Below are positions 5,738 to 42,943 of a stretch of 64,000 nt of DNA, piece after piece. Numbering within the stretch: the stretch's first letter is position 1; each line of letters starts with the position of its first letter. The translations under genes and the position numbers were made by a program. This DNA is from an uncultured Gemmatimonadales bacterium (GTDB lineage Bacteria > Gemmatimonadota > Gemmatimonadetes > Longimicrobiales > RSA9), in contig CAVUKA010000001.1 of NCBI GenBank assembly GCA_963741945.1, positions 898,560-962,559 on the forward strand, in the 5' to 3' direction. Below the pieces are notes generated by a model that saw only the letters and a list, made by a program, of their open reading frames with translations, was not told where the DNA came from and did no database searches.

Positions 5738-5851
5738 CCTCTCTCCTCTCGCGTTCCGGTCCACCGGTCGGATCCCGCGCTCCACCATACGCATGCGGCG
5801 CGCCCCCTGCACCGGAACGCGGGACGCCCGAGGCTGGACCGGCACCGCCTG

Positions 5852-5894: not shown

Positions 5895-5912
5895 TCCGGC
5901 CCCTGCTGCATT

Positions 5913-12161: not shown

Positions 12162-12303
12162 CCGACCTCCGACGCCCGTGTCCTTGCGCGCGACTTCGCG
12201 CAATGTGTCGCCTGTAACCTGCGCGGTTCCGCGCACTCCGGTAGGGGGCAAACTACGCGGAAAATCGCGGGGGATTCCCCGACACTACCACGGCCACGAC
12301 GCC

Positions 12304-24280: not shown

Positions 24281-25152
24281 GTCCCGGCAAGGAGTTGCGG
24301 AACCGACTGGAGGGGCGCGCGACGCTCCCCTTCATAGGCGTCTACGACGTCTTCTCGGCGTCGCTCGCCGGGCGCCATTTCGATGCCCTCTTCCTCAGCG
24401 GATTCGGCTTCGCCGCCAGCCACTACGGGCTACCGGACGTGGGGTTCGTGGCATGGCCTGACATGGTTTCACTGGTCCAGCGGATCCGCGCGATCCTGCC
24501 CCGGCACCACCTTCTGGTGGACATCGACGACGGCTACGGGGATCCCGTGGTGGCCGCACGCGTCGCTGCGACCCTCGAACAGGCGGGCGCGTCCGGTGTG
24601 GTCCTGGAAGACCAGCGCCGCCCCCGCCGGTGCGGTCATCTCGGCGGCAAGCAGCTCCTCGAGCTGGATGAGTACCGGCCCAAGCTGGAGCGGGTGCTGC
24701 AGGCCCGCTCCGACCTCTTCATCGTGGCCAGGACCGATGCGAGTGACCCACCGGAAGCGCTTCGGCGGGTGCGGGCATTCGCCGAAGCCGGCGCGGATGC
24801 GGTCCTGGTGGATGGGGTGGACCTCGACGTGGTCCGGACTCTCCGCGGAAAGGTGGACCGTCCTTGGGCATTCAATCAGATCGCCGGGGGCAAAGCCGAG
24901 CCGCGATCGCTTCAGGAGCTGAGTTCGGCAGGAATACAAATGGCCATCTACAGCACGCCTTGCCTGTTCGCCGCGCAGCACGCCATCGACCAGGCGTTGA
25001 CACAGCTCATGGCCGATGGCGGACGTCTCCCCGAAGTCGGCCCCGGCCGCCCCGGATTGGCTGACTGCAACGCCGTCCTCCAGGAAAACCTTGGCGGCGT
25101 GATGCACCCGGAAGCCGCGACGACTGCGGATTCCGGTCTACGGCCCCGCTGA
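24277..25152 (+). CDS. isocitrate lyase / PEP mutase superfamily enzyme, lyase-type active-site loop
   Basis: DIDDGYG and LEDQRRPRRCGHLGGK (the K/R-x-CGH gating loop of ICL, methylisocitrate lyase and oxaloacetate acetylhydrolase-type members). ATGA overlap with the upstream gene at 24277-24280. Confidence 0.85.
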   Translation: MSPGKELRNRLEGRATLPFIGVYDVFSASLAGRHFDALFLSGFGFAASHYGLPDVGFVAWPDMVSLVQRIRAILPRHHLLVDIDDGYGDPVVAARVAATLEQAGASGVVLEDQRRPRRCGHLGGKQLLELDEYRPKLERVLQARSDLFIVARTDASDPPEALRRVRAFAEAGADAVLVDGVDLDVVRTLRGKVDRPWAFNQIAGGKAEPRSLQELSSAGIQMAIYSTPCLFAAQHAIDQALTQLMADGGRLPEVGPGRPGLADCNAVLQENLGGVMHPEAATTADSGLRPR

Positions 25153-28100: not shown

Positions 28101-31100
28101 GACCGGCGCGTTCTCGCTGACCACCTCCGACGGTCGCTTCCCGAGTACATGATTCCGACGGCCTTCGTGCGACTCACGGAGCTCCCCCTCCTGCCCAATG
28201 GCAAGGTCGACCGGAAGGCACTTCCGGAACCTGATCCGGTTGGGGAAGCCGCGTTCGAGCCACCCCGGGGCCCCCGCGAGAGCGCGCTGTGCGAGATCTG
28301 GGAGAACGTGCTCGGTGTGCAGCCGATCGGACGGAACGTGGACTTTTTCGATGTCGGCGGCCACTCGCTGTCTGCCATGCTGGTCGTCGGCCGCGCGGAG
28401 GCGGCGCTCGGGATGGAGGTGCCGCTCCGGGCGATCTTTGAGCACCGCACCGTAGCGCGCCTGGCGGCCTTCCTGGAACGTGCAGAACGGGAACGGGGAG
28501 CTCTGTTCCCGCCGATCGAGACCGGGACCGATGTACCCGCCCCGCTCTCCTTTGCGCAGCGACGTCTGTGGTTTCTCGATCGGCTGGCACCGGGAAGACC
28601 AACGTACAACATCCCACTCGCGTTCCAGCTCCGCGGCCACCTTGATCCCTCAGCACTGCGCAGCGCCTTGCGACGGATCGTGGAGCGGCACGAGCCGCTG
28701 CGCTCATGGATCCGCGAGGGCGTCAGCGGACCCGTCCAGGTCGTCGCGCCTGCCGACCTGTTCGAGCTCGCCGTCGAAGAGGTCCCGGGGGGTCCTGAAG
28801 ACTCCCAACCCCGGGTGCTGCGCCGCCTGGAGGAGGAGGCGCACCGTGCGTTTCAGCTCTCGGACGAAATCCCGTTTCGCGCTCATCTCTTCCGGCTGGG
28901 CGCGCGCGAGCACGTGCTCTTCCTCTGCCTTCATCACACCGCTGCGGACGGCTGGTCCGTCGACATCCTCTTCGCGGAGCTTGAAGCGCTCTACGGCGCC
29001 GCCCTCGCCCGTGCGGAGCCGGACCTGCGGGCGCTCCCGGTCTCCTATTCCGACTACGCGAAATGGCAGCATCGGCACGAGGGTCTCCTGCAACCGGGCC
29101 TCGAGCGTTGGGTGAAGCGACTTCAGGGTGCGCGTGCGCTGGAGCTGCCCGTCGACCGCCCGCACACAGGAGTGCAGAGCGGCGCGGGCGGGGAGAGTCG
29201 AGCGCGGCTGGACGGCCACGTTCTGGAAGAACTGCGCGATCTCGCGCGAAGTGAGCAGACCACTCTCCACGTGGCACTATTGACTGCGTTCCACGTCATG
29301 CTTTCCCGGCTCAGCGGCCAGGATGACATCGTAGTCGGCACGCCCGTGGCGGGCCGCGTTCGGCCGGAGCTCGAGCCGCTCGTCGGCATGTTCGCCAACA
29401 CGGTCCCCATTCGCGTGGACCTCTCCGGCGAGCCGTCGTTCCTCGAAGCCTTGCGCCGTGTCCGCGCCGTGACCCTGGCGGTCTACGGTGATGAGGCAGT
29501 GCCGCTCGAAGCCATGGTGGAGGCCAGTGGGGTCGAGCGCGACGGCAGCGCCAATCCTCTGATCCAGGTGGCATTCGCGCTGGCAGCGGACGGTCGACGA
29601 GCGCCCCGGCTGCACGGTCTCGAGGTGGAGGACCTGGAGCTGCAGACGGCTACCGCGAAGTTCGACCTGTACCTCGCGGCCAATCCCAATGCCGATGGTC
29701 TTGCGCTGCGTCTCGAGTACGATGCGGACCTCTTCCAGGGCCGCACCGCCGCGCACCTCCTCGAGCTCTTCAAAACGCTGGTGTCCGCGGCTGTCGCGGA
29801 TCCCGAACGCCCCTTGGCGGATATCGACCTCTCCGACGACGAGGAGCGCCAATGGGCCGTCGACTGGAACCGGACCGAGCGGCCGTTCCCCGGCGACACG
29901 GTGCACGAGCTGTTCACCACGGTGGCCGCACGTACACCCGACGCTGTGGCCGTGGAGGACCCACACGAGCGACTTACATACGCAGACCTGGATGGCCGAA
30001 GCGCAGCGCTGGCCGGGCAGCTGGTGTCGCTGGGGGTGGAGGCGGGCGAGCGGGTCGGCGTGTTCATGGAACCGGGCGCGCCGCTGGTGGTTTCCATGCT
30101 GGGCATTCTTCGGGCGGGCGCCTGCTACGTTCCGCTCGACCCCGCACTCCCTGGCCAGAGACTGGCGCTCCTGATCGAGGACGCGGGCATCCGGCACGTA
30201 GTGGCGTCCGGCCGGGTTCCCCCCGGCCTCCGGGCGACGGGCGTCGAGATCGTGGAGGCCCGCGACGGTCGCGACCAGCGCCTCCGCGACGTGGCCCGGC
30301 CCGCTTCTGTCGCCGCAACCGCGAATGACCTCGCCTACGTCCTCTACACCTCCGGCAGCACGGGCCGGCCCAAGGGCGTGGCCGTACCGCATCGGGCAAT
30401 CGTCCGATTGGTTCGGAACTCCGACTATGTCGACCTCCGGACCGATGACGTGGTGGCGCAGGTCTCCACCCCCAGCTTCGATGCCGCCACATTCGAGATC
30501 TGGGGAGCGCTGCTGAACGGCGCCCGGCTGACCATCCCGGACAGCCGCCTGCTCTCGCCCCGGGAGCTCGAGGGGTTCCTTCGCGACCGAGGAGTGACAA
30601 CGCTGTTTCTGACCACGGCGCTCTTCAACCAGGTGAGCCGGGAGCGCCCCGCTGCATTCGGATCTCTGCGCCAGCTCCTCTTCGGTGGGGAGACCGCCGA
30701 CGCGGAGGCCGCCCGGCGCGTCCTGGATGGCGGCGCCCCGCCGAAGCGCCTGCTGCACGTCTACGGGCCTACCGAAAACACGACATTTTCAACTTGGTAC
30801 GCCGTCCAGCACGTACCGCCCGGTGCCGCCACACTGCCGATCGGGCGCCCGATCGCCAATTCCACCGCGTGGGTCATGGACGCGCGAGGAAAGCTGCAGC
30901 CACGGGGACTCTGGGGCGACCTGTACGTGGGCGGCGTGGGCGTGGCCGCCGGCTATCTCGGGGCGGCCGCGGCTGAGGCCGACCGTTTCGTTCCGGACCC
31001 GTTCGCAAATGCGCCCGACCGCCGGCTTTACCGGACCGGAGACCGCGCGCGCTGGAACCTGGATGGCGAACTCGAGTTTGGCGGTCGACTCGACACCCAG

Positions 31101-32579
31101 GTGAAGCTCCGCGGGTTCCGCATCGAGCTGGCCGAGGTCGAGGCCGCCCTTCGCCGCTCCGCGGGTGTGCGGGATGCCGTCGTCGCGCTCCGGGGCGAGG
31201 GGGCAGGGCGCCACCTCGTCGCCTATGTCGTGACCGGTGAGGACGCCGTGGACCGCTCGACGCTGCAGGACCAGCTCCGCGAGCAGATTCCGGCCTACAT
31301 GGTTCCGACGGCCGTGGTCGCCCTCGATGCGCTCCCCCTCACGCCCAGCGGGAAAGTCGATCGGCAGGCGCTCCCGGAGCCGGACCCGGTCAGGGTCGGC
31401 GGAGCTCGTCCACCTGGAGATCCTCTCGAGCGCCAGATCGCCGCCATATGGGCGTCTCTCCTCGGTGTCGAGGCCGTGAGCGCTCGGGACAGCTTCTTCG
31501 ACCTGGGGGGGAATTCGCTCCTCGCCCTGGAGATGGTTCGCCGCGTGGAGAGTACCACTGGCCGGCGCCTCGAGCTTCGGGCGCTATTCGAGGAGCCCAC
31601 TGTGGCTCATCTCGCCCGCGTGGTCGCCCGCGAGGCGACCTCCACCACCTCCTCCGTCGTCCAGGTGCGAGAAGGGGATCCTGGCGTCCCCCCCTTCATC
31701 TTCTTTCATGGTGACTTCAACGGTGCGGGGCTTTACACTCGCAGATTGTTGGCCGAGATCGATGAGAGTCAGCCGGTCTATATCGTCCACCCACACCAAC
31801 CGGGCGGGCCGGAGACGATCGAAGCCATGGCCCAGGACCTCTACCCCGCCGTGCGCCGTGTACGCCAACATGGCCCCTTCCGCCTGGGCGGCCACTGCAA
31901 CGGGGGCGTCGTGGCGTTCGAAATGGCCCAGCGACTCGTCGCGGCAGGCGAGACCGTGGACCTGCTGGTCCTGGTGGACGTGCCAGGTCGCAACATCGGC
32001 CTGGCGCGCTACGCCGCCTTCCTCGACCAGGTCGGTCATGCGGCCCGCCTCACCTCCGAACGCCGCCGCGCCCTCTTCCGGGCGACGCGTGGATCGGCTC
32101 AGCGGCTGGTGCATGGCTGGATGAGCGCGGGAGAAGGGGGAGGTTCGTATCTCGCCGCCCCGCGGCGAACTGTCTTTCTCAGCTCCTGGCTGGTCGGTGA
32201 AGCCCGCCGTGTCGCGACCCGTCTCTTCCACGCGGTCCGCCGATGGACGGGCGGCGCAGACGCGTCCCGGCCTCGCCACCCGTACGTGGAGCGACTCGAA
32301 CGAGCAGCCTACTTCGGTTTGGCCATGGAAGCCTACGTCCCCAAGCGCTTTGCTGGCCCGGTCGTCATCGTTGCGCCCGAGCAGGAGAGTACGGACTCCG
32401 TGTCCGTTTCCGCACCGGCTCGGCTCTGGGCCCGGGTTGCCGATCACGCCGAGGTGTTCCGGATCGACGGCGATCACCTGAGTGTGATCGCGGAGGACAG
32501 TCAGCCCTTCGGTCGTCTTCTCGCCCGTCTGCTGCGCCAGGCAGGGCGCCCGCTCCGGGGCGCCAACCCTCGTGAGTGA
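25152..32579 (+). CDS. non-ribosomal peptide synthetase, two modules: C-A-T-C-A-T-TE
   Basis: C1 HHIAFDGWS (nt 25746). A1 LAYMIYTSGSTGTPKGV. T1 GGHSLSA (Ser 28365-28367). C2 HHTAADGWS (28932). A2 LAYVLYTSGSTGRPKGV. T2 GGNSLLA (Ser 31515-31517). TE elbow GGHCNGG (Cys 31896-31898) with GDHLSV. No E domain motifs seen. TGATG overlap with the upstream gene. Confidence 0.95.
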   Translation: MPMATPPPESLSHLSPAARDLLARRSRADESSSAGSEPLRHRPGATEAPLSFGQQQVWFFEQLEPGSAVYHLPKEVRLRGPLDVPALERALGEVVRRHEILRTRYGTLADGAIRQLVLPAAGRVELPCVDVTASATQTDEPSDGTLAQPEALARGEGSPWRRQVGLDALRPFDLAAGEVLRAKLYRFGSEDHLLHLVFHHIAFDGWSMGVFLRDLASAYGGALRGDATLPPLPIQYGDHAAWEVSRLESGRFDDVIDYWRRRLRGAPPESTFPASRPRQVDRTYAAAQEHRRLPDHLKSALHDMARRQNATESAVLLAAFQVLLARHSGARDVVVGVPVAGRTRSEQEDLVGYFVNMLPARLDLADDPSFRQVVDRVRTGLLEGFDHQTVPFDRIISDLRVHRDAGITPLFQVAFNDRILPNQGAEFEGLDVEMRAGFHARHLLDLSLEVGHVAGTIECDLTYSLELFDPGYARTLLPQLETVLQAMIADPDAAITAAPLLRPAERSRIIEAGRGPRRPVPPSTLIHELVQEQAARDPEASAIIGDEETLTYGEMRRRAASLAARLRNAGIAPETRVGVFVDRSPGQIVALLGVLEAGGAYVPLDPSYPRERLAFIAHDSGMEAIVTTRRLRSRVPLDSIPALCLDDPSTPDGSDAAPASVIRNVPSDPLAYMIYTSGSTGTPKGVEVTHASVANLAAAERDLLRVAPADRVLQFSTINFDVSVAEIFTSLTAGAAVVVCTPSMLTSVPQFVRACEAKGVTLLSMSTALWHELVVSLAEGDVEMPPAVRTVMIGGEAARPDRLELWRRHGSGIPLINGYGPTETTVFATAQDLTHPVAGEDAVVPIGRPLHNVDVHVLDERMAVVPAGVPGELYIGGLCVGRGYHDRPELTAERFLPDPFSARPGGRLYRTGDIVRRREDGALDFLGRRDNQVKIRGFRIEAGEIEVAMAAHPSVRTAVVVPRPDGVGDLRLVAYVVPASGVFDRRVLADHLRRSLPEYMIPTAFVRLTELPLLPNGKVDRKALPEPDPVGEAAFEPPRGPRESALCEIWENVLGVQPIGRNVDFFDVGGHSLSAMLVVGRAEAALGMEVPLRAIFEHRTVARLAAFLERAERERGALFPPIETGTDVPAPLSFAQRRLWFLDRLAPGRPTYNIPLAFQLRGHLDPSALRSALRRIVERHEPLRSWIREGVSGPVQVVAPADLFELAVEEVPGGPEDSQPRVLRRLEEEAHRAFQLSDEIPFRAHLFRLGAREHVLFLCLHHTAADGWSVDILFAELEALYGAALARAEPDLRALPVSYSDYAKWQHRHEGLLQPGLERWVKRLQGARALELPVDRPHTGVQSGAGGESRARLDGHVLEELRDLARSEQTTLHVALLTAFHVMLSRLSGQDDIVVGTPVAGRVRPELEPLVGMFANTVPIRVDLSGEPSFLEALRRVRAVTLAVYGDEAVPLEAMVEASGVERDGSANPLIQVAFALAADGRRAPRLHGLEVEDLELQTATAKFDLYLAANPNADGLALRLEYDADLFQGRTAAHLLELFKTLVSAAVADPERPLADIDLSDDEERQWAVDWNRTERPFPGDTVHELFTTVAARTPDAVAVEDPHERLTYADLDGRSAALAGQLVSLGVEAGERVGVFMEPGAPLVVSMLGILRAGACYVPLDPALPGQRLALLIEDAGIRHVVASGRVPPGLRATGVEIVEARDGRDQRLRDVARPASVAATANDLAYVLYTSGSTGRPKGVAVPHRAIVRLVRNSDYVDLRTDDVVAQVSTPSFDAATFEIWGALLNGARLTIPDSRLLSPRELEGFLRDRGVTTLFLTTALFNQVSRERPAAFGSLRQLLFGGETADAEAARRVLDGGAPPKRLLHVYGPTENTTFSTWYAVQHVPPGAATLPIGRPIANSTAWVMDARGKLQPRGLWGDLYVGGVGVAAGYLGAAAAEADRFVPDPFANAPDRRLYRTGDRARWNLDGELEFGGRLDTQVKLRGFRIELAEVEAALRRSAGVRDAVVALRGEGAGRHLVAYVVTGEDAVDRSTLQDQLREQIPAYMVPTAVVALDALPLTPSGKVDRQALPEPDPVRVGGARPPGDPLERQIAAIWASLLGVEAVSARDSFFDLGGNSLLALEMVRRVESTTGRRLELRALFEEPTVAHLARVVAREATSTTSSVVQVREGDPGVPPFIFFHGDFNGAGLYTRRLLAEIDESQPVYIVHPHQPGGPETIEAMAQDLYPAVRRVRQHGPFRLGGHCNGGVVAFEMAQRLVAAGETVDLLVLVDVPGRNIGLARYAAFLDQVGHAARLTSERRRALFRATRGSAQRLVHGWMSAGEGGGSYLAAPRRTVFLSSWLVGEARRVATRLFHAVRRWTGGADASRPRHPYVERLERAAYFGLAMEAYVPKRFAGPVVIVAPEQESTDSVSVSAPARLWARVADHAEVFRIDGDHLSVIAEDSQPFGRLLARLLRQAGRPLRGANPRE

Positions 32580-33321
32580 GATCGCGCGTTCTGGTGAGCC
32601 GCCCCCGCTACAACCCGACGAGGTTCATGTCTGGCGCGCTGTTCTCGGGCTCGATCCAGCGGTCGAGCCAATGCTGGACCGTTTCCTTTCACATGCCGAG
32701 CACAGGCGCGCGACGCTGTTCCACCGGACAGCCGATGCCCGGCTCTTCCGCTTCGCGCATGGTTTCCTGCGACTGATTCTCGCCCGCTACACCGGCACCC
32801 TCGATCCAGGCGCGATCTCGCTGGCGAACGATGCTCGGGGAAAGCCGCGGCTTGCCCGCGCCAGCGGCTGCCGTCCTGTCGAATTCAATCTCTCGCATTC
32901 CGGGGATGCGGTCCTTGTCGCTTTGACCCGAACTCGGCACGTCGGTGTCGACGTCGAGACCCTGGATCGCGCGCCCGATGCCGAGGCCATCGCCCGTCGC
33001 TTCTTCGCTGCGCCGGAGCTGGCCCGCATTCTCGCCAGCCCGCCGGCGCAGCGTGCCGGGTTATTCCTGCGACACTGGGTCATGAAGGAAGCGTTCGTGA
33101 AAGGGTTGGGGCTCGGTCTCGGCGCCATCGACCTCAAGGCGTTCGCCATGGACCCCGACGCCACGAATGGACGCATCCATCCGCTCACGCGCGAGATGCA
33201 CCGGCACTCGAAGACCTGGGCAGTGGCCGAGGTCGCGGCCCCTGAGGGCCACGTCGCCGCCGTTGCCGTCAACACCCCCGTGCTCCGCTGGAAGGGCTTC
33301 GCCTGGCAAGGCCCGATCTGA
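32572..33321 (+). CDS. Sfp-type 4'-phosphopantetheinyl transferase
   Basis: FNLSHSGDAVLVAL, VGVDVE and WVMKEAFVKGLG motifs. GTG start overlaps the NRPS stop (32572-32579). Confidence 0.85.
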   Translation: MSEIARSGEPPPLQPDEVHVWRAVLGLDPAVEPMLDRFLSHAEHRRATLFHRTADARLFRFAHGFLRLILARYTGTLDPGAISLANDARGKPRLARASGCRPVEFNLSHSGDAVLVALTRTRHVGVDVETLDRAPDAEAIARRFFAAPELARILASPPAQRAGLFLRHWVMKEAFVKGLGLGLGAIDLKAFAMDPDATNGRIHPLTREMHRHSKTWAVAEVAAPEGHVAAVAVNTPVLRWKGFAWQGPI

Positions 33322-33358
33322 TCTGCCTTGCAACTTCGATCGCTTCGCCTCTTCGAGC

Positions 33359-33408
33359 CCTTCGTGTCACGCTGTTCGGGGAGCTGTTCCTTCGTGTCAC
33401 GCTGTTCG
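33359..33408. repeat. perfect 20-bp direct repeat with exact 30-bp period, upstream of the haem-motif sensor kinase gene
   Basis: CCTTCGTGTCACGCTGTTCG at 33359-33378 and again at 33389-33408. Additional CTTCG and GCTGTTC submotifs lie nearby. Confidence 0.85.
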
Positions 33409-33556
33409 CCGAGCCGTACGGGACCGCGCGGACGTTCGTCGCCCGCGCGGGGCGTTCCCCCACGTCGCTGCGGGTGATTTTCCTCCTTGACATGATGTTC
33501 CCTACAAATGAACCTCCAGTCGGGAAGCCCCTGCTGACCTCTGTCGTTGGAGGTTC

Positions 33557-35191
33557 GTGAGTTTCAAGAATCTGGGCACGCGGATCGCCCTGACCGCGGG
33601 TTTTTTCACGCTCGTCAGCGTGGGGCTCCTTTCGTTCATCCTGGTCCAGCGTCAGCGGGAGCAGGTGCGGGCGGAGGTCGTGCATGGCTCGGAGAGCCTG
33701 GCGGACGCCATCGCGCTGAGTGTGCACCGGGACATGCAGCTGAACCACCGCGGGGGCGTCCGCGAGATGCTCGAGACGGTAGGCCAGCACGAAGGCATCG
33801 CCGGCATTCGCCTGTACAACCGTGAAGGCCGCATCTCCTACTCTTCCGACCCGGCCGAAGTCGGGCGGGTGGTGCCCCGGAGCTCCGAAGCCTGCGTGAC
33901 GTGCCATGCCAACGGGCAGGCGACGGCAACCGTGGAGCCGGACCGCCGCTGGCGCATCTTCACGGGGCAGGATGGGGAGCGCCTGCTCGGGACGATCCAC
34001 GTGATCCGCAACGAGCCCGGGTGTCAGGGAGCCGGGTGCCACGCGTCGCCGGCACAGCAGAGCGTGCTCGGAGTCCTGGATGTGGCCATGTCCATGGCGC
34101 CCGTGGAGCGCCGCCTGGCCTCCGACACCCGCGACGCGCTCCTGATCTCCCTCCTCGCCGTCGCGGTGATCACGCTCCTCCTCGTGCTCCTGGTGCGCCG
34201 GAGCGTGCGTCGCCCGATCCAGCGGATGGTGAGCGCCACGCGGCGGATGGTGGAGGAGACGGGGTCGCTCCCCGTGCCCCGCGGGACGGCACCGGAGATC
34301 GCGATCCTGGCCGAGTCCTTCAACGAGATGATCGAGAGCCTGGCGAGCTCGAAGCAGCGCCTCGAGGACTGGGCGGAAACGCTCGAGGAGCGCGTCTCCT
34401 CGAAAGCGCAGGAGCTCCGGGAAGCCCAGTTCGAGGTGCTCCAGGCGGAGAAGCTCTCCTCCGTCGGCCTGGTAGCGGCCGGGATCGCCCACGAGCTGAA
34501 CAGCCCGCTCATGGCCATCATCACCTTCTCGCACCTGGTCAAGTCGGCCGTGCCCGATGACGAGGGCGCGCAGGAGGACCTCCGCATGATCGAGCGGGAG
34601 GCGAACCGCTGCGCGGCCATCATCCGGCAGCTCCTCGACTACTCGCGTAAGCAGGCGGAAGACCCGGAGACCCACCCCCAATCCGTGGCCCCGGTGCTCG
34701 AGCGGGCGCTCGAGCTGGTGAAGGTGGAGCTTCAGAATGGCGGCTTCCGGGTGACGACCGAGCTGTCGCCCGACCTCCCCTCCGTCGAGGTGAACGATCA
34801 GCAGCTCATGCAGGTGTTCGTCAACCTCATCATGAACGCGCTCCACGCCATGGGCGACGACGGTGGCGAGATCCTGTTCCGGGGCGACACCGTGCGGCGC
34901 GACGATTTCCCGAACGTGGACTGGCCGCTCCACGGTGGCACCGAAGCCGTCCGCATTCGCGTCCGGGACACCGGGCCCGGGATCGCGCGGGAGAAGTTCT
35001 CGAAGATCTTCGATCCGTTCTACACGACCAAGCCGGTGGGCCAGGGCTCCGGCCTCGGACTCGCCGTATCCCTCGGGATCGTACGCGGCTATCGGGGTAC
35101 GATCATGGTGGACAGCGATGGCGAGTCGTGGACGGAGTTCACGATCCTCTTGCCGACGGCGGAGAACCCTGCAATGGCCTTGACCTCATGA
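33557..35191 (+). CDS. sensor histidine kinase with extracytoplasmic domain carrying c-type haem-binding motifs
   Basis: GTG start with GGAGG upstream. TM1 (FFTLVSVGLLSFILV), sensor region with CVTCH (33893-33907) and CQGAGCH (34022-34042), then TM2 (LLISLLAVAVITLLLVLLV). HAMP-like linker, H-box AHELNSPLMAI, NLIMNALHAM, VRDTGPGI, GSGLGL. Confidence 0.85.
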   Translation: MSFKNLGTRIALTAGFFTLVSVGLLSFILVQRQREQVRAEVVHGSESLADAIALSVHRDMQLNHRGGVREMLETVGQHEGIAGIRLYNREGRISYSSDPAEVGRVVPRSSEACVTCHANGQATATVEPDRRWRIFTGQDGERLLGTIHVIRNEPGCQGAGCHASPAQQSVLGVLDVAMSMAPVERRLASDTRDALLISLLAVAVITLLLVLLVRRSVRRPIQRMVSATRRMVEETGSLPVPRGTAPEIAILAESFNEMIESLASSKQRLEDWAETLEERVSSKAQELREAQFEVLQAEKLSSVGLVAAGIAHELNSPLMAIITFSHLVKSAVPDDEGAQEDLRMIEREANRCAAIIRQLLDYSRKQAEDPETHPQSVAPVLERALELVKVELQNGGFRVTTELSPDLPSVEVNDQQLMQVFVNLIMNALHAMGDDGGEILFRGDTVRRDDFPNVDWPLHGGTEAVRIRVRDTGPGIAREKFSKIFDPFYTTKPVGQGSGLGLAVSLGIVRGYRGTIMVDSDGESWTEFTILLPTAENPAMALTS

Positions 35192-36651
35192 CCGACGAAG
35201 TGAGCTGGACCGAGCCCCCGCACGTGCTCGCCGTGGATGACGAGCAGGTGGTCTGCGAAAGCATCCGCCGCGTCCTCACCGGCGAAGGCTATGTGGTCAA
35301 GACCACCACCTCCCCGCGCGAGGGCCTCGACATGATCCGCAAGGAGACGTTCGACCTCCTGCTCCTCGACATCAAGATGCCCGAGATGGACGGGATCGAG
35401 CTCCTGCGCCGCGTCAAGGACCTGTCTCCAGAGACCGAAGCCATCGTCATTACCGGCTACGGCACCATCGAGACGGCCATCGAGGCCACCAAGCTCGGCG
35501 CCTTCGACTACCTCGAGAAGCCCGTCAGCCCCCCGGCTCTCATCGTCACCACGGCCCGCGCACTCGAGCGCAAGCACCTCGTCGATCTCACCCGGCGTCT
35601 CCGCTCCGAGCTCGACACCCGCTATTCCGTGGGCAACGTGATCTGCTCCTCCCCCGCCATGCGCAAGGTCATGGACCTCGTGGCCAAGGTCGCTCCCACC
35701 AACAGCACCGTGCTCATCACGGGAGAGACCGGCACCGGGAAGGAAGTCATCGCGCGCGCGCTCCATTACAACAGCCGTCGCAACGACGGGCCGTTCATCG
35801 TTGCCGACTGCGCCTCGCTCAGCGAGTCCCTCCTCGAGTCCGAGCTCTTCGGCCACGTCCGCGGCGCCTTCACGGGTGCCGCCAGGGACCGGAAGGGCCT
35901 CGCCGAGGCCGCGCGCGGCGGAACGCTCTTCCTCGACGAGATCAGCACCATCTCCCCCAAGGTGCAGGGCAGCCTCCTCCGCCTCATTCAGGAGCACGAG
36001 ATCCGACCCGTCGGCGCGGACAGGACCATCTCCGTCGACGTCCGCGTCATCGCCGCCACCAACCGCGACCTCCAGGAGCTCGTCGATGACGGCTCCTTTC
36101 GCGACGACCTCTTCTACCGCCTGAGCGTCTTCGCCATCCGCCTCCCGCCCCTGCGCGAGCGCAAGGAAGAGATTCCGCTCCTCGCCCACCACTTCGTCCA
36201 GCGCATCGGCGAAGAGGTCGGCAAGCAGATCGACGCCATCTCGCCCCAGGCCATGGCCCTCCTCGAAGCCCACGACTGGCCCGGCAACGTCCGCGAGCTC
36301 GAAAACGTCATCGAGCGCGCCGTCCTGCTCTCCGAAGGACGCACCATCCAGCCCCAGGCCGTTCCCCTCGCCGCCGAACACTCCGCGGCCCGCTGGGACG
36401 ACGTGCCCGACGACGCCGCCACCCTCGCAGAACGGAAGAAGGAGATCCGCGCCCAGGCCGTCGAGGACCTCGAGAAGCTGTTCGTCCTCAAGGCCCTCCG
36501 CGGCGCCGACTGGAACGTCTCCGAAGCCGCCCGCCGCGCCGGCATGCAGCGCCCCAACCTGCACGCCCTCATGCGCAAGTACGACATCACCACCCCGTCC
36601 GGCGACACCGGGGAAGAAGACACGGAGCAAGAGGGCGCCGGGGCATCCTGA
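35188..36651 (+). CDS. sigma-54-dependent response regulator (NtrC family)
   Basis: Start ATG 35188 (MTDEVSW), ATGA overlap with the kinase stop. REC (VLAVDDE, LLLLDIKMPEMDG), GETGTGKE, ESELFGHVRGAFTGA, HTH (AARRAGMQRPNLHALMRKY). Confidence 0.9.
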   Translation: MTDEVSWTEPPHVLAVDDEQVVCESIRRVLTGEGYVVKTTTSPREGLDMIRKETFDLLLLDIKMPEMDGIELLRRVKDLSPETEAIVITGYGTIETAIEATKLGAFDYLEKPVSPPALIVTTARALERKHLVDLTRRLRSELDTRYSVGNVICSSPAMRKVMDLVAKVAPTNSTVLITGETGTGKEVIARALHYNSRRNDGPFIVADCASLSESLLESELFGHVRGAFTGAARDRKGLAEAARGGTLFLDEISTISPKVQGSLLRLIQEHEIRPVGADRTISVDVRVIAATNRDLQELVDDGSFRDDLFYRLSVFAIRLPPLRERKEEIPLLAHHFVQRIGEEVGKQIDAISPQAMALLEAHDWPGNVRELENVIERAVLLSEGRTIQPQAVPLAAEHSAARWDDVPDDAATLAERKKEIRAQAVEDLEKLFVLKALRGADWNVSEAARRAGMQRPNLHALMRKYDITTPSGDTGEEDTEQEGAGAS

Positions 36652-36722
36652 CGCCTCTTCTCCACCCCCTCTTCGGACGGGGCGCCATGGCTCCATGGCG
36701 TCCTCCGATCCACCCCTCCTGA

Positions 36723-36747
36723 GGGTGTATATCCTTCGCATACACCC
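36723..36747. promoter_or_regulatory. upstream activator site candidate 1 (GTGTAT-N9-ATACAC palindrome)
   Basis: GGGTGTAT-ATCCTTCGC-ATACACCC, with perfect 8-bp inverted arms. Confidence 0.55.
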
Positions 36748-36838
36748 ATCGTGACCCCACCAAGAAGCACCCTAAGTCAATAGGCCACAACGCATTATGG
36801 ATACCCTGTCCCGATTCTCTCCCCTCCCCCGGCCGTGA

Positions 36839-36861
36839 GGTGTATACGGTCTGTATACACT
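36839..36861. promoter_or_regulatory. upstream activator site candidate 2 (GTGTAT-N9-ATACAC palindrome)
   Basis: GTGTAT (36840-36845), 9-nt spacer, ATACAC (36855-36860). Same core and spacing as site 1; centres are 115 bp apart. Confidence 0.55.
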
Positions 36862-36954
36862 CTCGCCCCTTCCAGGCCCCTCACCGCCCGATCGCACTAC
36901 CCGCTAACGCTTTGTGCACCAACGTGTTATGGAAATCGTGATAAAATTCCCATT

Positions 36955-36972
36955 TGCGGCACGACCGTTGCC
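36955..36972 (+). promoter_or_regulatory. sigma-54 (-24/-12) promoter
   Basis: tgcGGCACGaccgTTGCc: GG at 36958-36959 and GC at 36970-36971 (12-nt offset) fits TGGCACG-N4-TTGC. It lies about 45 nt upstream of ATG 37014 and downstream of the two palindromes and an AT-rich stretch (36921-36950). Confidence 0.7.
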
Positions 36973-37013
36973 CTCTACAAGGCCGAACGGGATCGGGTCC
37001 GGAGTGGACGGAG

Positions 37014-37442
37014 ATGGGCTGCCCGAGGAAGGAGGGGCCGGAAGTGGGAGCACGGGAACAAGGATCCACGGTCTTGCTGTCGGATGCTGGCGGCTACGGC
37101 GCGCTGGCGGGCCGGCTGTCGGGCTCCGGGCACGCGGTGGTGTGGTACTCGAGCCTGGAGGAGCTGCTCCGGGAGCATCCATTGTCGACGATTGCGGTGC
37201 TGGTGGTGCACGGCAAGGCGGCGCCGAAAGGGGTGCTGCTGGCCACGCTGGGTCGGATGAACCTGGAGTACCCGCGCATGCAGAAGGTGGCGGTGATGGA
37301 AGGTCCGCTGCCGCTGCCGATCGCCGAGTACCTGACCGCGTGCGGAGTGGAGCTGGTGTGGTCGGAGTCGCGGGAGGAAGCGTTGACGCGGCTGACGACG
37401 GTTCTGGAGCGTGTTCACGAGCGTGCGGGCTGGCTCGCCTGA
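37014..37442 (+). CDS. receiver-like (pseudo-receiver) domain protein lacking the phospho-acceptor Asp
   Basis: 142 aa from ATG 37014 (GGAG SD). Alternating beta/alpha pattern with G/C-rich third positions. STVLLSDAG replaces the DD pocket and IAVLVVHGK has His where the acceptor Asp is expected. No conserved Thr/Lys. TTG 36954 is rejected because it lies upstream of the sigma-54 promoter. Confidence 0.6.
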   Translation: MGCPRKEGPEVGAREQGSTVLLSDAGGYGALAGRLSGSGHAVVWYSSLEELLREHPLSTIAVLVVHGKAAPKGVLLATLGRMNLEYPRMQKVAVMEGPLPLPIAEYLTACGVELVWSESREEALTRLTTVLERVHERAGWLA

Positions 37443-37477
37443 GGCGGCGGTCCGCGCTTGAACGAAGGAGGAGCGAG

Positions 37478-38095
37478 ATGAGAAGGAACGGCAAGGTCCT
37501 GGTGGTGGACGACGAGGAAGCCGTCCGCACGAGCTGGAACCGCTACCTGTCGGAGCGCGACTTCGACGTGACGACGGCGGAAGACGGGAAGGTGGCCATG
37601 GACTGGCTCGCGCGTGAGCCGGTGGATGTGGTGGTTGCCGACCTGAAGATGCCGACTGTGAGCGGGATCGAGCTGCTGGAGTGGATGAAGGGTGAGGCGC
37701 CGGACACCCCGTTCATCCTGTTGACGGGTTTCGGGAACGATGACGTGAAGCGTCGGGTGCGGGAGCTCGGCGGGTTCGAGTACCTGGACAAGCCGGTGAG
37801 TCCGGAGGTACTGGCGGCCGTCGTCACGGCGGCCATGTTGAAGAAGGAGCAGGAGGAGTCGGCCGCGGCGGAGGCCGAGGCGGTGTCGCCGATGCGGGCG
37901 GAGCCGGAGCTGACGGAGTCGTCGGAAGCCGAGCGTGGTGCCATGGGCAGCACGGGCGAGGTCTTAACCGGCCTGGTGGTGGCGCCGATACTGGGTCTGG
38001 CGTTCGTGATGTTCCTGCCGGTGATCGGCTTCGCGGCGTTCTTCAAGGTCGCGGCGGAAGCAGTGAGCAAGCGGTTCAAGCCAGCGAACACGTGA
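37478..38095 (+). CDS. single-domain response regulator receiver with C-terminal transmembrane anchor
   Basis: ATG 37478 after GAAGGAGGAG. Canonical REC (VLVVDDEE, VVVADLKMP, ILLTGFG, EYLDKP), an acidic linker, then the hydrophobic helix VLTGLVVAPILGLAFVMFLPVIGFAAFF. Confidence 0.8.
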   Translation: MRRNGKVLVVDDEEAVRTSWNRYLSERDFDVTTAEDGKVAMDWLAREPVDVVVADLKMPTVSGIELLEWMKGEAPDTPFILLTGFGNDDVKRRVRELGGFEYLDKPVSPEVLAAVVTAAMLKKEQEESAAAEAEAVSPMRAEPELTESSEAERGAMGSTGEVLTGLVVAPILGLAFVMFLPVIGFAAFFKVAAEAVSKRFKPANT

Positions 38096-38116
38096 GCCTG
38101 AGAAGCTGAGGAGAAG

Positions 38117-40375
38117 GTGATGAGCGGATCCATGCGAGGGGCGGCCGGGGGTGCGGTAGTGCTGCTCCTCATGCTCCTGGGGGAGGGGGTCGGCGCCGGC
38201 GCGGTCCGAGCGCAGACGCCTCAGCAGAAGTACGTGGAAGGCGCGTGTGCGTCGTGCCACGACAGCGACGCGGTGCTGCGGGCGCAGGCGCTCCCGCATG
38301 CGAGCTCGGTGTCGTGCCTCGACTGCCACCACATGGGGCTCCAGACCACGAGCCGGGCTGCGCTGAAGGCCCGGCAGCTGGACGCCTGCCGCAGCTGTCA
38401 TGAGACGGAAGCGGCCGAGACCGGGCACGGAGCGGGGGACGCGACGTGCCTGGACTGCCATGTGATCCATGGCGAGCCGCGGCTGGATTGGGCGAAGAAG
38501 AGTCTCTCCGCCCGGTGCGCGTCGTGCCACGATACTCCGCACAAGCTCCACACCGGCGTCGAGGCGGGAGCACCGCTGTGCGTGGACTGTCATGATGTCC
38601 ACCATACGCGGCAGCGGGCGGCGCAAGAGGAAGTGCGCACGGCAGCGGCGACCGGCGACGTTTCCGAGGTTTCCGCGGGGGAAACCCCGCCGATGATTTC
38701 GGCGTGTGTGTCGTGTCACGAGGACGTCCATCCGTCGCATCCCAAGAAGGGGCGGGACGCGGTCGACTGCGTGCAGTGCCACGACCCGGACGCGGCCGAG
38801 CCGGTGGCGCGCGACAGTGTCCGTCTGGCGGCGGCGTGTGCCAGCTGCCACGAGGACGCGCACCGGACACACCAGGGCGTTGGAGAGGGTGCGCCGCTGT
38901 GCATAGACTGTCACTCGTTCGCGAACGACCCTCCCATCACCGAGCTCCCGGTGGCCGTGATCGCGGACCGCTGCGCGGTGTGCCACCCGGACGCCATGCA
39001 GGAATACCTGAGGGGGGGCCACTCCGTGGGGCTGACGTCGCACGCTTCGCACAAGAGCGTCCCCACCTGCCTGACGTGCCACGTGGACATGCTGGAGGGG
39101 GAGACGAACCGCGCGCCGAACCGCATGGCGGCGGCGAGCACGTGCATCGGCTGCCACAGCAACAAGAAGCTGGCGGAGACGTACGGACTGTCCACGACCG
39201 TGGTGACGTCGTACGAGGACGACTATCACGGCACGACGCTCGGCTTCATGAAGGCAGCCGGGTCGGCCGACTCCGTGGCCGTGCTCACCTGCGAAGACTG
39301 CCACGGCGCACACGCGGTGGGCTGGAGCAAGGAGAAGGTGGTGAGCGAGGTGTGCGAGCGCTGCCACAAGAACGCCAGCCCGAAGCTGGCGGGCGCGTGG
39401 CTCGGCCATGAGCCTCCTGGCCCGCACAACCAGCTGCCCACGTGGCTGGTCAGCATGTTCTACTATTTCCTGATTCCCTTCATGCTGATCGGGCTCTCCC
39501 TGATCATCCTCTACGAGGCGCTCCATGGGCAGCGCCACCGGGCGTGGTCACGGAAGGTCCGCTCCATCTGGGCGCGCCTCACGGGGAAGCAGACCGAGCG
39601 GCCGCGGATGATCAGGCGCTTCACGGTGTGGGAGCAGCTGCAACACGCCCTGGGGTTGACCACCTTCATCACACTCGTGGTCACGGGGTTGCCGCAGCTC
39701 CGGCCCGACCTGGCCACGGCCGATGCCATCATCGGGTTCTTCGGCGGAATCGGAACTACGCGGCTGGTCCACCGGATCGCGGGGTTCTCCTTCGCGACCC
39801 TGCTGGTCGTGCACGTCGGGCTCGCCATCGTGAACGCGATCCGCAAGCGCCGGATGCCGATCATGCTTCCCACGCTCGAGGACTTCGACAAGGCCGTCGG
39901 CACGGTCCGTCACTTCATCGAGAGCACGCCCAGGCCGAAGGTCGGGAAGTTCGACTTCGCGCAGAAGTTCGAATATGGCGGCCTGCTCATGGGCGGCCTG
40001 GTCATGACGTTCACCGGGATCGCCCTGGTCTGGCCGGAAGTGGCCACGCGCCTGCTCCCGGGCGAGTGGATGGCGGCCATGCGCACCATGCACGGCTACG
40101 AGGCCACGTTCGCCACGCTCGTGGTGGTCCTCTGGCACTCGTGGGGAGTGATCTTCCGGCCGGAGATCTTCCCGCTCGACACGTCGATCTTCACCGGCAA
40201 GGTGAGCGTGGAGCGGCTGAGGGAGGAGCACTGGCTGGAGTACGCGCGCCTCTTCCCGGAGGAGGCGGCTAAGGAAGCCGCGCAGGAAGCCGCAGAGCGC
40301 GCGGCCGGTGAAACATCGGGTCGGGGGGGTGCAGGCAGTGAGAAGGCGGTGCCGGACGCGCCGCCGAACGCCTGA
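38117..40375 (+). CDS. multihaem cytochrome c (15 CXXCH) fused to FdnI/HydC-type cytochrome b membrane domain (CbcL-like), paralogue of 7298..9346
   Basis: Signal peptide and 15 CXXCH in about 430 aa, then TM helices with His conserved relative to the paralogue (RFTVWEQLQHAL..VTGLP, LVHRIAGFSF..VVHVGL, MHGYEATFATLVVVLWHSW). Start is GTG 38117 or ATG 38120. Confidence 0.9.
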   Translation: MMSGSMRGAAGGAVVLLLMLLGEGVGAGAVRAQTPQQKYVEGACASCHDSDAVLRAQALPHASSVSCLDCHHMGLQTTSRAALKARQLDACRSCHETEAAETGHGAGDATCLDCHVIHGEPRLDWAKKSLSARCASCHDTPHKLHTGVEAGAPLCVDCHDVHHTRQRAAQEEVRTAAATGDVSEVSAGETPPMISACVSCHEDVHPSHPKKGRDAVDCVQCHDPDAAEPVARDSVRLAAACASCHEDAHRTHQGVGEGAPLCIDCHSFANDPPITELPVAVIADRCAVCHPDAMQEYLRGGHSVGLTSHASHKSVPTCLTCHVDMLEGETNRAPNRMAAASTCIGCHSNKKLAETYGLSTTVVTSYEDDYHGTTLGFMKAAGSADSVAVLTCEDCHGAHAVGWSKEKVVSEVCERCHKNASPKLAGAWLGHEPPGPHNQLPTWLVSMFYYFLIPFMLIGLSLIILYEALHGQRHRAWSRKVRSIWARLTGKQTERPRMIRRFTVWEQLQHALGLTTFITLVVTGLPQLRPDLATADAIIGFFGGIGTTRLVHRIAGFSFATLLVVHVGLAIVNAIRKRRMPIMLPTLEDFDKAVGTVRHFIESTPRPKVGKFDFAQKFEYGGLLMGGLVMTFTGIALVWPEVATRLLPGEWMAAMRTMHGYEATFATLVVVLWHSWGVIFRPEIFPLDTSIFTGKVSVERLREEHWLEYARLFPEEAAKEAAQEAAERAAGETSGRGGAGSEKAVPDAPPNA

Positions 40376-40406
40376 CGCCCGCGAGCCCCTGGCGACGCAT
40401 GGATCC

Positions 40407-40437
40407 GGGCCCGCCGACCGTCACGGTCGGCGGGCCC
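40407..40437. terminator. bidirectional terminator hairpin between convergent genes
   Basis: GGGCCCGCCGACCG-tca-CGGTCGGCGGGCCC: a 14-bp perfect stem between the cytochrome stop (40375) and the purA stop (40444). Confidence 0.6.
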
Positions 40438-40443
40438 TCGCCG

Positions 40444-41733
<1,290 letters not shown>

Positions 41734-41740
41734 GCGGTGA

Positions 41741-42943
41741 CTATGGCCCGCCGTCGCGCTCCCCCGCAAGACGCGATTTCCCGTCCGATGCCAGCATGCG
41801 CATCGCGGCGGCGAGCAGGGTCGCGCCATCGGCCGCTCCCCGGCCGTCCAGCCGCTCCGCGGAGTCGCCCGGACGATGCACGCGCAGGAGCGAGCGGCGA
41901 CGGCCTCGCAGCACCGTGAGGGCGGGGAAGCCGGCAGCGGCGAGCGGCACGTGGTCCGCGGTGAGCAAGCGCGGCAGCCGTTGCCGCCGCACGGGCAGCT
42001 CCAGCGCGCTCGCCGCGGTCAGGAGCGCCGCGGCCAGGTGAGGCGCGCTCCCCCGCCGCCGGGCCCAGCCGTATCCCTCGGCCACGTAGAAGGGGCCCTC
42101 GTCGTCCAGGCCGTCCACGTTGATCACGCCCTGCACCGGTGGCAGCCGGGTGGCCACGTCGCGGGCACCGGCAAGGTCCATCTCCTCGGCATCGGTGATC
42201 AGGAACGCGATGTCGCCCCGTTCCTCCCGCTTGGCCACAGCCAGCAGCGCGGCCAGGCCGGAAGCGTTGTCCAGCGCCCCCGGGGAGCTGTTGCTCACCC
42301 GACCGCCGGCGAGCACGATGCCGCACGCCACCAGCACGCCGCCCGCCGCGATCTGTGGAGCGCCGAGACCACCCACGCCGACCAGCTCCAGCGCCGCGAG
42401 CGCCACCAGTCCGAGCCAGGCCGCCACGGCCCCGGACGCCGCCAGGCCGCGCGCCAGCGTCGGGATGCTCTGCCCTTTCGAGTCGCGGTGCGCCATGAGG
42501 ATCCATCCCGGCCGGCGGCCGGGGCGCCGGAAGAGCAGATTGGCGCCCCGAACGCGCGCCCACGGGAGGCGTCTCGTGGCCAGACTCCCCAGCGCGATCG
42601 GCAGGAGGGCCAGCGCGAGCGTCGCGCCGAGCACGGCGAGTGCGGACACGGCGAGGCCGGTGCGCAGGAGCCACGTGGCCGCCACGCCGCCGAGGACGAT
42701 CGCGACCGCGGACGCCATCAGGCCGAAGCGGCCATGGAGCGTGGAAAAGGAGAATTCGAGCGTTTCCGCTTCGTACCCGAGCGCGGCGAAGCGCTCACGG
42801 AGTTCGGCCTCCACGGCATCCGCCCCCTCCGAGCCGCAAAGGCGGGGTCGAGCCAGCGCCCGCACGTGGTCGCGGATCTCGGAACGGTCGGTGGGCGGGA
42901 CTTCGGCGGCCTGCGCGCGGGCTTCCTGGATATCGATCGGCAT
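41741..42943 (-). CDS. M28-family metallopeptidase with inserted transmembrane segments
   Basis: M28 metal-ligand motifs ILMAHRDS, GALDNASG, DAEEMDLAG and TADHVPL, interrupted by hydrophobic stretches. Confidence 0.7.
   Translation of the reverse strand: MPIDIQEARAQAAEVPPTDRSEIRDHVRALARPRLCGSEGADAVEAELRERFAALGYEAETLEFSFSTLHGRFGLMASAVAIVLGGVAATWLLRTGLAVSALAVLGATLALALLPIALGSLATRRLPWARVRGANLLFRRPGRRPGWILMAHRDSKGQSIPTLARGLAASGAVAAWLGLVALAALELVGVGGLGAPQIAAGGVLVACGIVLAGGRVSNSSPGALDNASGLAALLAVAKREERGDIAFLITDAEEMDLAGARDVATRLPPVQGVINVDGLDDEGPFYVAEGYGWARRRGSAPHLAAALLTAASALELPVRRQRLPRLLTADHVPLAAAGFPALTVLRGRRRSLLRVHRPGDSAERLDGRGAADGATLLAAAMRMLASDGKSRLAGERDGGP

Follow-up and report, generated by a model that had tools for sequence, protein, structure and literature searches.

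The cbcBA operon of Geobacter sulfurreducens (GSU0597-GSU0593) combines a sigma-54 promoter with two hypothetical genes, a response regulator gene, and the genes of the quinone-reactive dihaem cytochrome b CbcB and the seven-haem cytochrome c CbcA (Joshi, Chan & Bond 2021). Its induction below about -0.2 V requires the adjacent regulator BccR (GSU0598), which contains a receiver (REC), a sigma-54 activator, and a helix-turn-helix (HTH) domain, and the sensor kinase for BccR was not identified (Joshi, Chan & Bond 2021). Related electron transfer proteins are the CbcL/MtrH/MtoC homologues, which carry 3-23 haems, have been catalogued earlier in 15 phyla including Gemmatimonadetes, and are found in Fe(III) reducers and Fe(II) oxidisers. 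Here we describe a five-gene unit in the DNA of an uncultured Gemmatimonadales bacterium (contig CAVUKA010000001.1, positions 898,560 to 962,559), a stretch of 64,000 nucleotides that is referred to as the window and whose own numbering is used in the following. The unit (33557-40375, plus strand) encodes a histidine kinase with a putative haem sensor, a sigma-54 activator, two receiver-like proteins, and a cytochrome c/b fusion with 15 haem motifs. Like BccR/cbcBA, it places a REC-sigma54-HTH activator beside a predicted sigma-54 operon with uncharacterised small proteins, a response regulator, and b-type together with multihaem c-type cytochrome modules. In Geobacter, however, the activator gene is divergent and the b and c cytochromes (7 haems in the latter) are separate proteins, whereas here the kinase with its candidate haem sensor belongs to the unit and the cytochrome is a single 15-haem c/b fusion. 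The accessory genes, which code here for a pseudo-receiver and a tail-anchored receiver, are set beside GSU0597, GSU3489, and GSU0596 by description only.

The unit consists of five plus-strand genes and one long intergenic region, in the order kinase (33557-35191), activator (35188-36651), a gap of 362 bp, pseudo-receiver (37014-37442), tail-anchored receiver (37478-38095), and cytochrome (38117-40375), the last three genes being spaced by 35 and 21 nt. A first-pass annotation of the same DNA, made by a model from the letters and open reading frames, had named six elements, counting the regulatory region with its promoter, and every one of them is present where it had been placed. On the 5' side, the unit is preceded by a pair of genes for a nonribosomal peptide synthetase (NRPS) and a phosphopantetheinyl transferase that ends at 33321, and on the 3' side, it is followed by the convergent purA gene (40444-41829, minus strand). 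The GC content of the window is ~68-70%, and the nearest relatives are metagenome-assembled genomes (MAGs) of Gemmatimonadota.

The first-pass annotation had called the module self-contained and had proposed a comparative survey of the arrangement. A cytochrome profile search of species-representative genomes yielded 60 loci (L numbers below), in which the gene order was mapped by tblastn with domain-level queries. The order of sensor domain, kinase core, activator, pseudo-receiver, tail-anchored receiver, and cytochrome was shared by 39 of these loci, while several further loci were incomplete at contig ends. The hosts of the 39 loci are MAGs of Gemmatimonadales and Longimicrobiales and also MAGs labelled Proteobacteria (L043) and Myxococcaceae (L045), and protein identities among them fall to 27-50%. 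No regulators are adjacent in L039, in L042, or in a branch of the cytochrome from Acidobacteriota (L051-L058), and in L015, the three-gene operon retained its promoter and upstream sites with the regulators encoded elsewhere, not adjacent. When a conserved gene beside the module was sought across related loci, no linked partner, outer-membrane conduit, or porin-cytochrome gene was found, because the only recurrent neighbours were Ku, a MerR/TPR protein, a peptidase, and an ABC permease; these are functionally unrelated, and each flanking gene family is common to at most 12 loci. As the same order thus occurs in 39 loci with unrelated flanks, the five genes form a self-contained unit. An identical order at 39 independent genome loci is far beyond chance, and the unit is maintained vertically and/or horizontally.

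Classical control regions of the NtrB/NtrC type consist of tandem enhancer sites, an IHF bend, and a -24/-12 promoter. The 362-bp gap of the window has the same predicted arrangement, with two dyad-symmetric sites at a distance of ~110-230 bp upstream, followed on the promoter side by an IHF-like core, and with GG and GC 12 nt apart. The distal upstream activator site (UAS; TGTATatccttcgcATACA, 36726-36744) is a palindrome of the type TGTAT-N9-ATACA recognised by motif scan and conservation; the proximal site (TGTATacggtctgtATACA, 36841-36859) lies 115 bp from it and 108 bp upstream of the -24 GG, neither palindrome being assigned to a strand. A putative IHF core (CAACGTGTTA, matching CAANNNNTTR; 36920-36929) follows 38 nt ahead of the -24 GG, embedded in AT-rich sequence. 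The predicted sigma-54 promoter (cGGCACGaccgTTGCc, 36957-36972) has GG at -24 and GC at -12, resembles TGGCACG-N4-TTGCW, and lies at a suitable distance from the gene and the enhancer sites, with a transcription start predicted near 36983. The longer form GTGTAT-N9-ATACAC was found twice (36725-36745 and 36840-36860) versus 0.00 times expected from shuffled sequences. The -24/-12 motif by itself was only weakly significant, with two matches in the window versus 0.42 expected, and two were reached in 9 of 100 shuffles.

Among the 45 loci with enough upstream sequence, the element GG[CT]A[CT]-N5-6-[TG]TG[CA] was present in 44, and in 42 of these, 30-73 nt separate it from the first operon gene (8-10 nt as mapped in L024 and L034). 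The palindrome TGTAT-N9-ATACA, with at most one mismatch, was found in 42 of the 45, mostly as a pair spaced by ~115 bp; a distance of ~110 bp separates the proximal copy from the -24 GG across loci, and in most of them, the distal copy is located at -276 to -291 relative to the first operon gene. All 74 palindromes are upstream of the operon, and none occurs elsewhere in ~1 Mb of the same loci on both strands. In addition, the 50 nt upstream of -24 are AT-enriched across loci, and a core of the form [CA]AANNNNTT[AG] is at a fixed position of -37 to -39 in 22 of 44 loci, compared to a background of 0.007 per 50 nt. The subclade with nine-haem cytochromes (L030, L031, L033-L036) has a promoter variant, TGGCA[CT]-N5-TTGA/GTGA, without the usual -12 GC and with the TGTAT-N9-ATACA site kept. 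The view that the subclade (L030-L036) is promoterless was dropped, as this variant (TGGCA[CT]-N5-[TG]TGA) is present. In L019, a second 15-haem paralogue (742 aa, 6222-8450) is inserted between activator and pseudo-receiver, directly behind its own -24/-12 element (TGGCATGCCGCTTGCA at 6233); the usual promoter, at 8723, is still present. This extra paralogue beside the activator is a natural experiment for the predicted control by the activator. Taken together, the two palindromes and the near-consensus promoter seen in the first-pass annotation, along with the IHF-like core, are conserved across loci and constitute a strong phylogenetic footprint for putative control of the operon by the activator, in a textbook layout of enhancer, IHF-like bend, and -24/-12 promoter. 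We therefore regard activator-dependent sigma-54 transcription of the three-gene operon as very likely. The system would differ from the classical regions in that the recognition sequence TGTAT-N9-ATACA is specific to this family and a respiratory cytochrome takes the place of a nitrogen-assimilation gene as the target.

Two side aspects concern these motifs. In some loci, an extra palindrome, TTGTACC-N5-GGTACAA, abuts the -24 element (L004, 8780-8798; L014, 5073-5095; L044, 8776-8794; L041, 5089-5113). It could be the site of a second regulator and is not evident in the window. The sole other window match to GGCACR-N4-TTGC (59149-59162, minus strand) is ~300 nt upstream of a gene for a trehalose-6-phosphate-synthase-like protein (57310-58851, minus strand), with a REC-GGDEF protein encoded divergently at 59408-60466, and this match may be due to chance.

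The regulator that would act at these sites is an NtrC-type sigma-54 activator of 487 aa, whose ATG overlaps the TGA of the kinase gene (ATGA), so that the two are translationally coupled. Its domains were recognised by Pfam (Response_reg, Sigma54_activat with E=5e-68, and HTH_8), and the protein has all features of NtrC-family enhancer-binding proteins, namely a REC domain with D17/D18 and the phosphoacceptor-type D61, an AAA+ domain with the Walker A motif GETGTGK and the GAFTGA motif, and a C-terminal Fis-type HTH. The coupled NtrC-type activator of the first-pass annotation was thus confirmed.

The kinase (544 aa), delimited by Pfam domains, hydropathy, and motifs, starts with a GTG that has GGAGG 5 nt upstream. 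It contains a first transmembrane (TM) helix TM1 (aa 12-30), a periplasmic sensor domain (aa 31-194, 164 aa; nt 33647-34138), TM2 (aa 195-213), HAMP, HisKA with H312 in the H-box, and HATPase_c, and it has hundreds of full-length orthologues. An AlphaFold model of aa 31-194 (pLDDT 82.5) showed a long N-terminal helix and the five-stranded sheet of a single-Cache/PDC domain, the fold of the family of extracytoplasmic sensors between two TM helices. The best PDB match by Foldseek was 3B42, the haem-c sensor of the Geobacter chemoreceptor GSU0935, followed by WalK, KinD, DctB, CitA, and 3B47 (GSU0582). The sensors of GSU0935 and GSU0582 are high-spin in the oxidised and Met-ligated low-spin in the reduced state, with midpoint potentials of -251 and -156 mV. 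NO is bound by their oxidised and their reduced form and CO by the reduced form, with displacement of Met60. A 2026 preprint defines the corresponding sCache_haem family (DUF3365/Tll0287), in which CXXCH is conserved in 99% of the members.

The first-pass annotation had described a kinase with a CXXCH haem motif. Such a motif is indeed present (CVTCH, aa 113-117, nt 33893-33907), and the domain is homologous to a haem-c redox sensor, but the sensor haem of the homologue matches a different motif, CQGAGCH (CX4CH; aa 156-162, nt 34022-34042), which that annotation had not mentioned. In the profile alignment, Cys140-Gln-Ser-Cys143-His144 of GSU0935 falls onto C156...C161-H162, and the distal ligand Met60 falls onto M60 (nt 33734-33736), an invariant residue and candidate distal haem ligand; the residue numbers of GSU0935 were obtained via a chain offset of 34 derived from the alignment. 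The assignment of the CXXCH at aa 113 as the sensor haem was therefore dropped, and this motif most likely constitutes a second, extra haem site, because the family motif aligns with CX4CH. Both CVTCH and GC-X4-CH are invariant in 39 of 40 orthologues. The exception is L044, where the kinase gene (5548-7069) is frameshifted in the sensor domain and the kinase core, due to an assembly error or a decaying copy. The Pfam model PF21563 matches 17 of 21 members, with a best E of 9.5e-5 and 18.8 bits (cut-off 27) for the domain of the window, while PF11845 matches 4 of 21 members with E >= 0.17; sub-threshold matches to sCache_3_2 and Mcp40H-20_sensor occur in 17-18 of 21 members. As the domain stays below the cut-offs, has CX4CH (C156-H162) at the CXXCH position of the family, and carries an additional CXXCH elsewhere, it is probably a divergent variant of sCache_haem with two putative haems. 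It shares with GSU0935 and GSU0582 the single-Cache fold, the aligned Cys/Cys/His and Met60, and a fused signalling output. It differs from the family by its CX4CH and by the second CXXCH between beta2 and beta3, and its output is a HAMP histidine kinase rather than a chemoreceptor (MCP) as in the sCache_haem examples. We consider haem-based periplasmic sensing by this kinase to be probable.

A 20-bp direct repeat (CCTTCGTGTCACGCTGTTCG, two copies 30 bp apart, 33359-33408) lies upstream of the kinase gene, and a perfect TTGACA hexamer (33488-33493) is found ~60 nt before its GTG. No matching -10 was found for this hexamer, and a sigma-70 scan returned no promoter. Repeat and hexamer may be the control region of the kinase/activator operon.

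The cytochrome (752 aa; the public annotation starts at ATG 38120) is composed of a signal peptide (hydrophobic N-terminus, aa 12-30), a periplasmic multihaem domain (aa ~31-435) with exactly 15 CXXCH motifs between aa 44 and 417, a linker TM helix, and a four-helix b domain of FdnI/HydC type. Pfam recognised Cytochrome_C7, Paired_CXXCH_1, Cytochrom_c3_2, and, above the cut-off, Ni_hydr_CYTB (E=7e-12), and the b domain gave weak matches to TIGR01583 and TIGR02125. In the alignment of homologues, Cys and His columns are invariant, including H510, H552, H566, H659, and H674 of the b domain. There are ~50 close homologues at 38-82% identity; 42 of 51 have 15 motifs, and seven have nine (~590 aa). 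More distant homologues (25-30% identity) occur in Verrucomicrobiota, Omnitrophota, and others, and a sequence search against the PDB matched no solved structure. Both halves of the CbcL/MtrH/MtoC layout are present, that is, an N-terminal multi-CXXCH region with signal peptide and a C-terminal HydC/FdnI-like b domain with conserved His, in full agreement with the CbcL-like 15-haem fusion proposed in the first-pass annotation. As in CbcL (GSU0274), a periplasmic multihaem c domain is fused to a HydC/FdnI-like dihaem b domain. Unlike CbcL, the protein has 15 rather than 9 haem motifs (a nine-haem subclade does exist), and its gene lies behind a predicted sigma-54 promoter, whereas cbcL is constitutive in Geobacter. 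Electron transfer between the quinone pool and the periplasm by this cytochrome is likely. The export of electrons, which had also been proposed, is unproven, as the same cytochrome family occurs in Fe(II) oxidisers and the direction is not readable from the sequence.

The first gene behind the promoter codes for 142 aa if started at ATG 37014 or for 132 aa if started at GTG 37044. The latter codon, preceded by AAGGAGG at a distance of 8 nt, is the more likely start because most homologues have 131-133 aa. Searches of Pfam, NCBIfam, and PDB sequences gave no match for this protein, and its 105 homologues are all annotated as hypothetical, none with a Pfam domain. The AlphaFold model (pLDDT 79) has the (beta-alpha)5 receiver fold, and Foldseek listed the atypical receivers of TadZ/CpaE first, followed by HupR, NtrX, and other REC domains (E ~1e-5 to 1e-4, TM-scores 0.6-0.7). 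The catalytic residues of canonical receivers are not retained: the residue at the end of beta3 varies between H, D, L, and N, there is no Lys-Pro after beta5, and only a single acidic residue follows beta1. The conserved parts are instead the alpha3-beta4 and alpha4-beta5 surfaces. Thus, the name pseudo-receiver given in the first-pass annotation is appropriate, since the receiver fold is there and the phosphoacceptor position is not conserved. The N-terminal domains of TadZ/CpaE (4DAD, 4DN6, 4LDA) are the best structural matches and likewise have a receiver fold without a conserved phosphorylation pocket. In contrast to these, the pseudo-receiver stands alone and is not the N-terminal domain of a ParA/MinD-like ATPase, the identity is 16-20%, and there is no Pfam family. 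In the distant locus labelled Pirellulaceae (L050; 3732-4902), the slot of the pseudo-receiver is occupied by a canonical REC protein (DD, D, T, K) with an activator-like alpha1, and the next gene keeps the TM tail, which suggests that the pseudo-receiver descends from a true receiver.

The second gene codes for a canonical receiver of 205 aa (Response_reg, E=3e-27), in which D10/D11, D55, T83, and K105 are conserved in 45 orthologues. The receiver domain is followed by an acidic/Ala-rich linker and, according to hydropathy, one C-terminal TM helix (~aa 162-184, nt 37961-38029), in agreement with the membrane-anchored receiver of the first-pass annotation. This helix is strikingly conserved among the 45 orthologues, with the motif L..AP..GLAFV.FLP.IG, which speaks for a defined contact with another helix and not just for anchoring. 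Only ~11 full-length clusters of this protein were found among 1.8 billion representative proteins, and the other matches were mostly to generic REC domains. At alpha1 positions of the kinase-contact type, the residues (V, S, R, L) are those of the activator and differ from those of a paralogous activator in the window, which gives weak support to a shared kinase for the tail-anchored receiver and the activator.

These observations can be combined into a two-component, sigma-54-dependent switch for a respiratory cytochrome, a model to which we assign a probability of roughly 60%. Kinase and activator would be made from a promoter of their own upstream of the kinase gene. One haem c would reside in the pocket homologous to that of GSU0935 (C156/C161/H162 with M60 as distal ligand), and the switching between Met-on and Met-off states known from GSU0935 would report the redox state, while a second haem on CVTCH may relay electrons from periplasmic cytochromes or bind gas. 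By analogy to the kinase and regulator families, the signal would alter how the kinase phosphorylates itself at H312 and passes the phosphate on to D61 of the activator. The phosphorylated activator would then bind the two TGTAT-N9-ATACA sites, loop over the IHF-like bend, and open the promoter at 36957-36972, with the result that pseudo-receiver, tail-anchored receiver, and cytochrome would be transcribed as one operon. The cytochrome would shuttle electrons between the quinone pool, at its b domain, and periplasmic partners, via its 15 c haems, and its most likely role would be that of a quinol oxidase, as in the case of CbcL. The weakest steps are those of the accessory proteins. The co-induced canonical receiver would sit at the membrane beside the kinase and most likely take its phosphate and thereby tune or damp the response, and the pseudo-receiver most likely binds a true receiver domain via its conserved alpha4-beta5 face. 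Our confidence in any particular role of the two receivers is low, a phosphate sink or feedback being the role that we prefer. If the co-induced receiver does take phosphate from the same kinase, however, negative feedback is as likely as the feed-forward character that had been ascribed to the unit.

Several aspects weigh against this model. All loci come from uncultured MAGs, and its support is comparative and based on predicted structures. The sensor domain falls short of the Pfam thresholds for sCache_3_2, PF21563, and PF11845, the profile search against the PDB ranks 3B42 first at a borderline E of 0.023, and a conserved distal ligand for the extra haem at CVTCH was sought among the orthologues and not found. 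According to the 2026 preprint, moreover, sCache_haem domains fused to signalling modules show properties like those of NO sensors. The cytochrome was likened to CbcL (GSU0274) by domain layout and not by direct alignment, and no periplasmic or outer-membrane partner is co-encoded. The alpha1 similarity between the tail-anchored receiver and the activator is suggestive only, and neither the window nor 1.05 Mb of related loci yielded an RpoN box, the presence of rpoN in the genome being deduced from the two GAFTGA activators.

Some of these points bear on alternative explanations. It is conceivable that kinase/activator and receiver/cytochrome are merely neighbours, with the target of the activator elsewhere and the palindromes and the -24/-12 match arising by chance. 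The weak significance of the lone -24/-12 match would fit this, as would the paralogous module of the window, which has no such element between its activator and its cytochrome. However, 42-44 of 45 loci share the order, the promoter, the two UAS, and their spacing despite unrelated flanks, and these loci contain no UAS outside this region, by which this explanation is effectively refuted. The cytochrome could alternatively run in the opposite direction and reduce quinone, like the MtoC/MtrH proteins of iron oxidisers, with electrons supplied by donors in the periplasm or outside the cell, for instance Fe(II) or Mn(II). The distribution of CbcL/MtrH/MtoC homologues over iron reducers and iron oxidisers alike is compatible with this, and the related locus L012 comes from a MAG labelled 'Mn-Gemmatimonadetes'. 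We nevertheless judge such a function to be improbable, as the related loci show no linked outer-membrane conduit or porin-cytochrome gene and CbcL, the only characterised fused homologue, oxidises menaquinol.

A further alternative concerns the signal. The haem-Cache kinase might sense NO (or CO/O2), and the operon would then feed quinol electrons to periplasmic N-oxide reduction or detoxification. This agrees with the NO-sensor properties typical of sCache_haem domains on signalling modules, with the ligation of NO and CO by GSU0582 and GSU0935 at the expense of Met60, and with the extra haem without a conserved sixth ligand, as expected of a gas-binding site. In this sense, the redox signal assumed in the first-pass annotation is one of two live options. 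On the other hand, a nitrite, NO, or N2O reductase gene is linked in no locus, the protein under control is of the CbcL type with 15 haems, in line with the potential-responsive system of Geobacter, and the Met-ligated pocket is the one known to switch with the redox state. We therefore favour redox over NO as the signal at roughly 3:1 and hold the version with N-oxide reduction or detoxification to be unlikely.

The first-pass annotation was not aware of a description of this architecture. As far as the regulatory logic is concerned, this does not hold, as it has been published for BccR/cbcBA, and CbcL-type fusions and haem-Cache sensors are likewise known. The statement does stand for the combination and for the two accessory receivers, and in the literature searched, we found no description of the unit in Gemmatimonadota; a paper on sigma-54 regulons omits this phylum. 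Hence, each part is of a known kind, and what is new is the assembly together with the two accessory receiver proteins. The unit bears on the question of how bacteria sense the redox poise of the periplasm or the cell exterior and select between their quinol-oxidising cytochromes, as it hard-wires a candidate sensor, a putative dihaem variant of a characterised redox- and gas-sensing haem-Cache domain, to such a cytochrome. With the candidate sensor in the unit and a precise predicted enhancer sequence, the entire signal chain could be rebuilt and tested in a heterologous host. The unit also adds two uncharacterised protein types, a pseudo-receiver family without a Pfam model and a tail-anchored receiver, and it suggests that multihaem electron transfer is regulated in Gemmatimonadota, a phylum that is abundant in soils and sediments yet poorly cultured.

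A more speculative and rather doubtful idea is that the tail-anchored receiver is a phosphorylation-controlled regulatory subunit of the cytochrome, with its TM helix docking on the b domain or on the TM bundle of the kinase and the pseudo-receiver serving as an adaptor. If so, the same haem sensor would set the amount of the cytochrome via the activator and its activity via the receiver, and a two-component system would act directly on a respiratory enzyme. This would provide a genetic handle on the so far unexplained gating of CbcL by potential in Geobacter (bioRxiv 2022.08.31.506072).

At the downstream end of the unit, a GC-rich hairpin with a 14-bp stem and a 3-nt loop (40407-40437, no strand assigned; dG -44.7 kcal/mol for the 70-nt stretch) lies between the convergent cytochrome and purA genes and likely marks the end of the operon as a putative terminator. 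A terminator scan based on T-runs found none at 40407-40437, its sole match being on the minus strand inside the cytochrome gene, and an Rfam search of 33000-41000 yielded no RNA family.

Directly upstream of the unit, the region 25152-33321 encodes a two-module NRPS of 2475 aa with a terminal thioesterase-like region and the 4'-phosphopantetheinyl transferase. This pair is syntenic in the closest relative (L001/L002) and not in the other loci. A cytochrome-rich neighbourhood is found 20-30 kb upstream of the unit. It includes a 717-aa protein (14407-16560, minus strand) with 9 CXXCH motifs, a NapC/NirT-like N-terminus, and C-terminal TPR repeats, as well as the paralogous module (5913-12251, minus strand). 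The latter consists of the kinase HK2 (10674-12251), which has a CHASE8-like sensor without a haem motif, the sigma-54 activator EBP2 (9343-10695), an 11-CXXCH cytochrome (7298-9346) whose b domain is 30% identical to that of the main cytochrome, and then a 12-CXXCH cytochrome (~5913-7290). The interval between EBP2 and its cytochrome is the one in which the -24/-12 element is missing. Similar second modules are found next to the main one in L006, L048, and L052.

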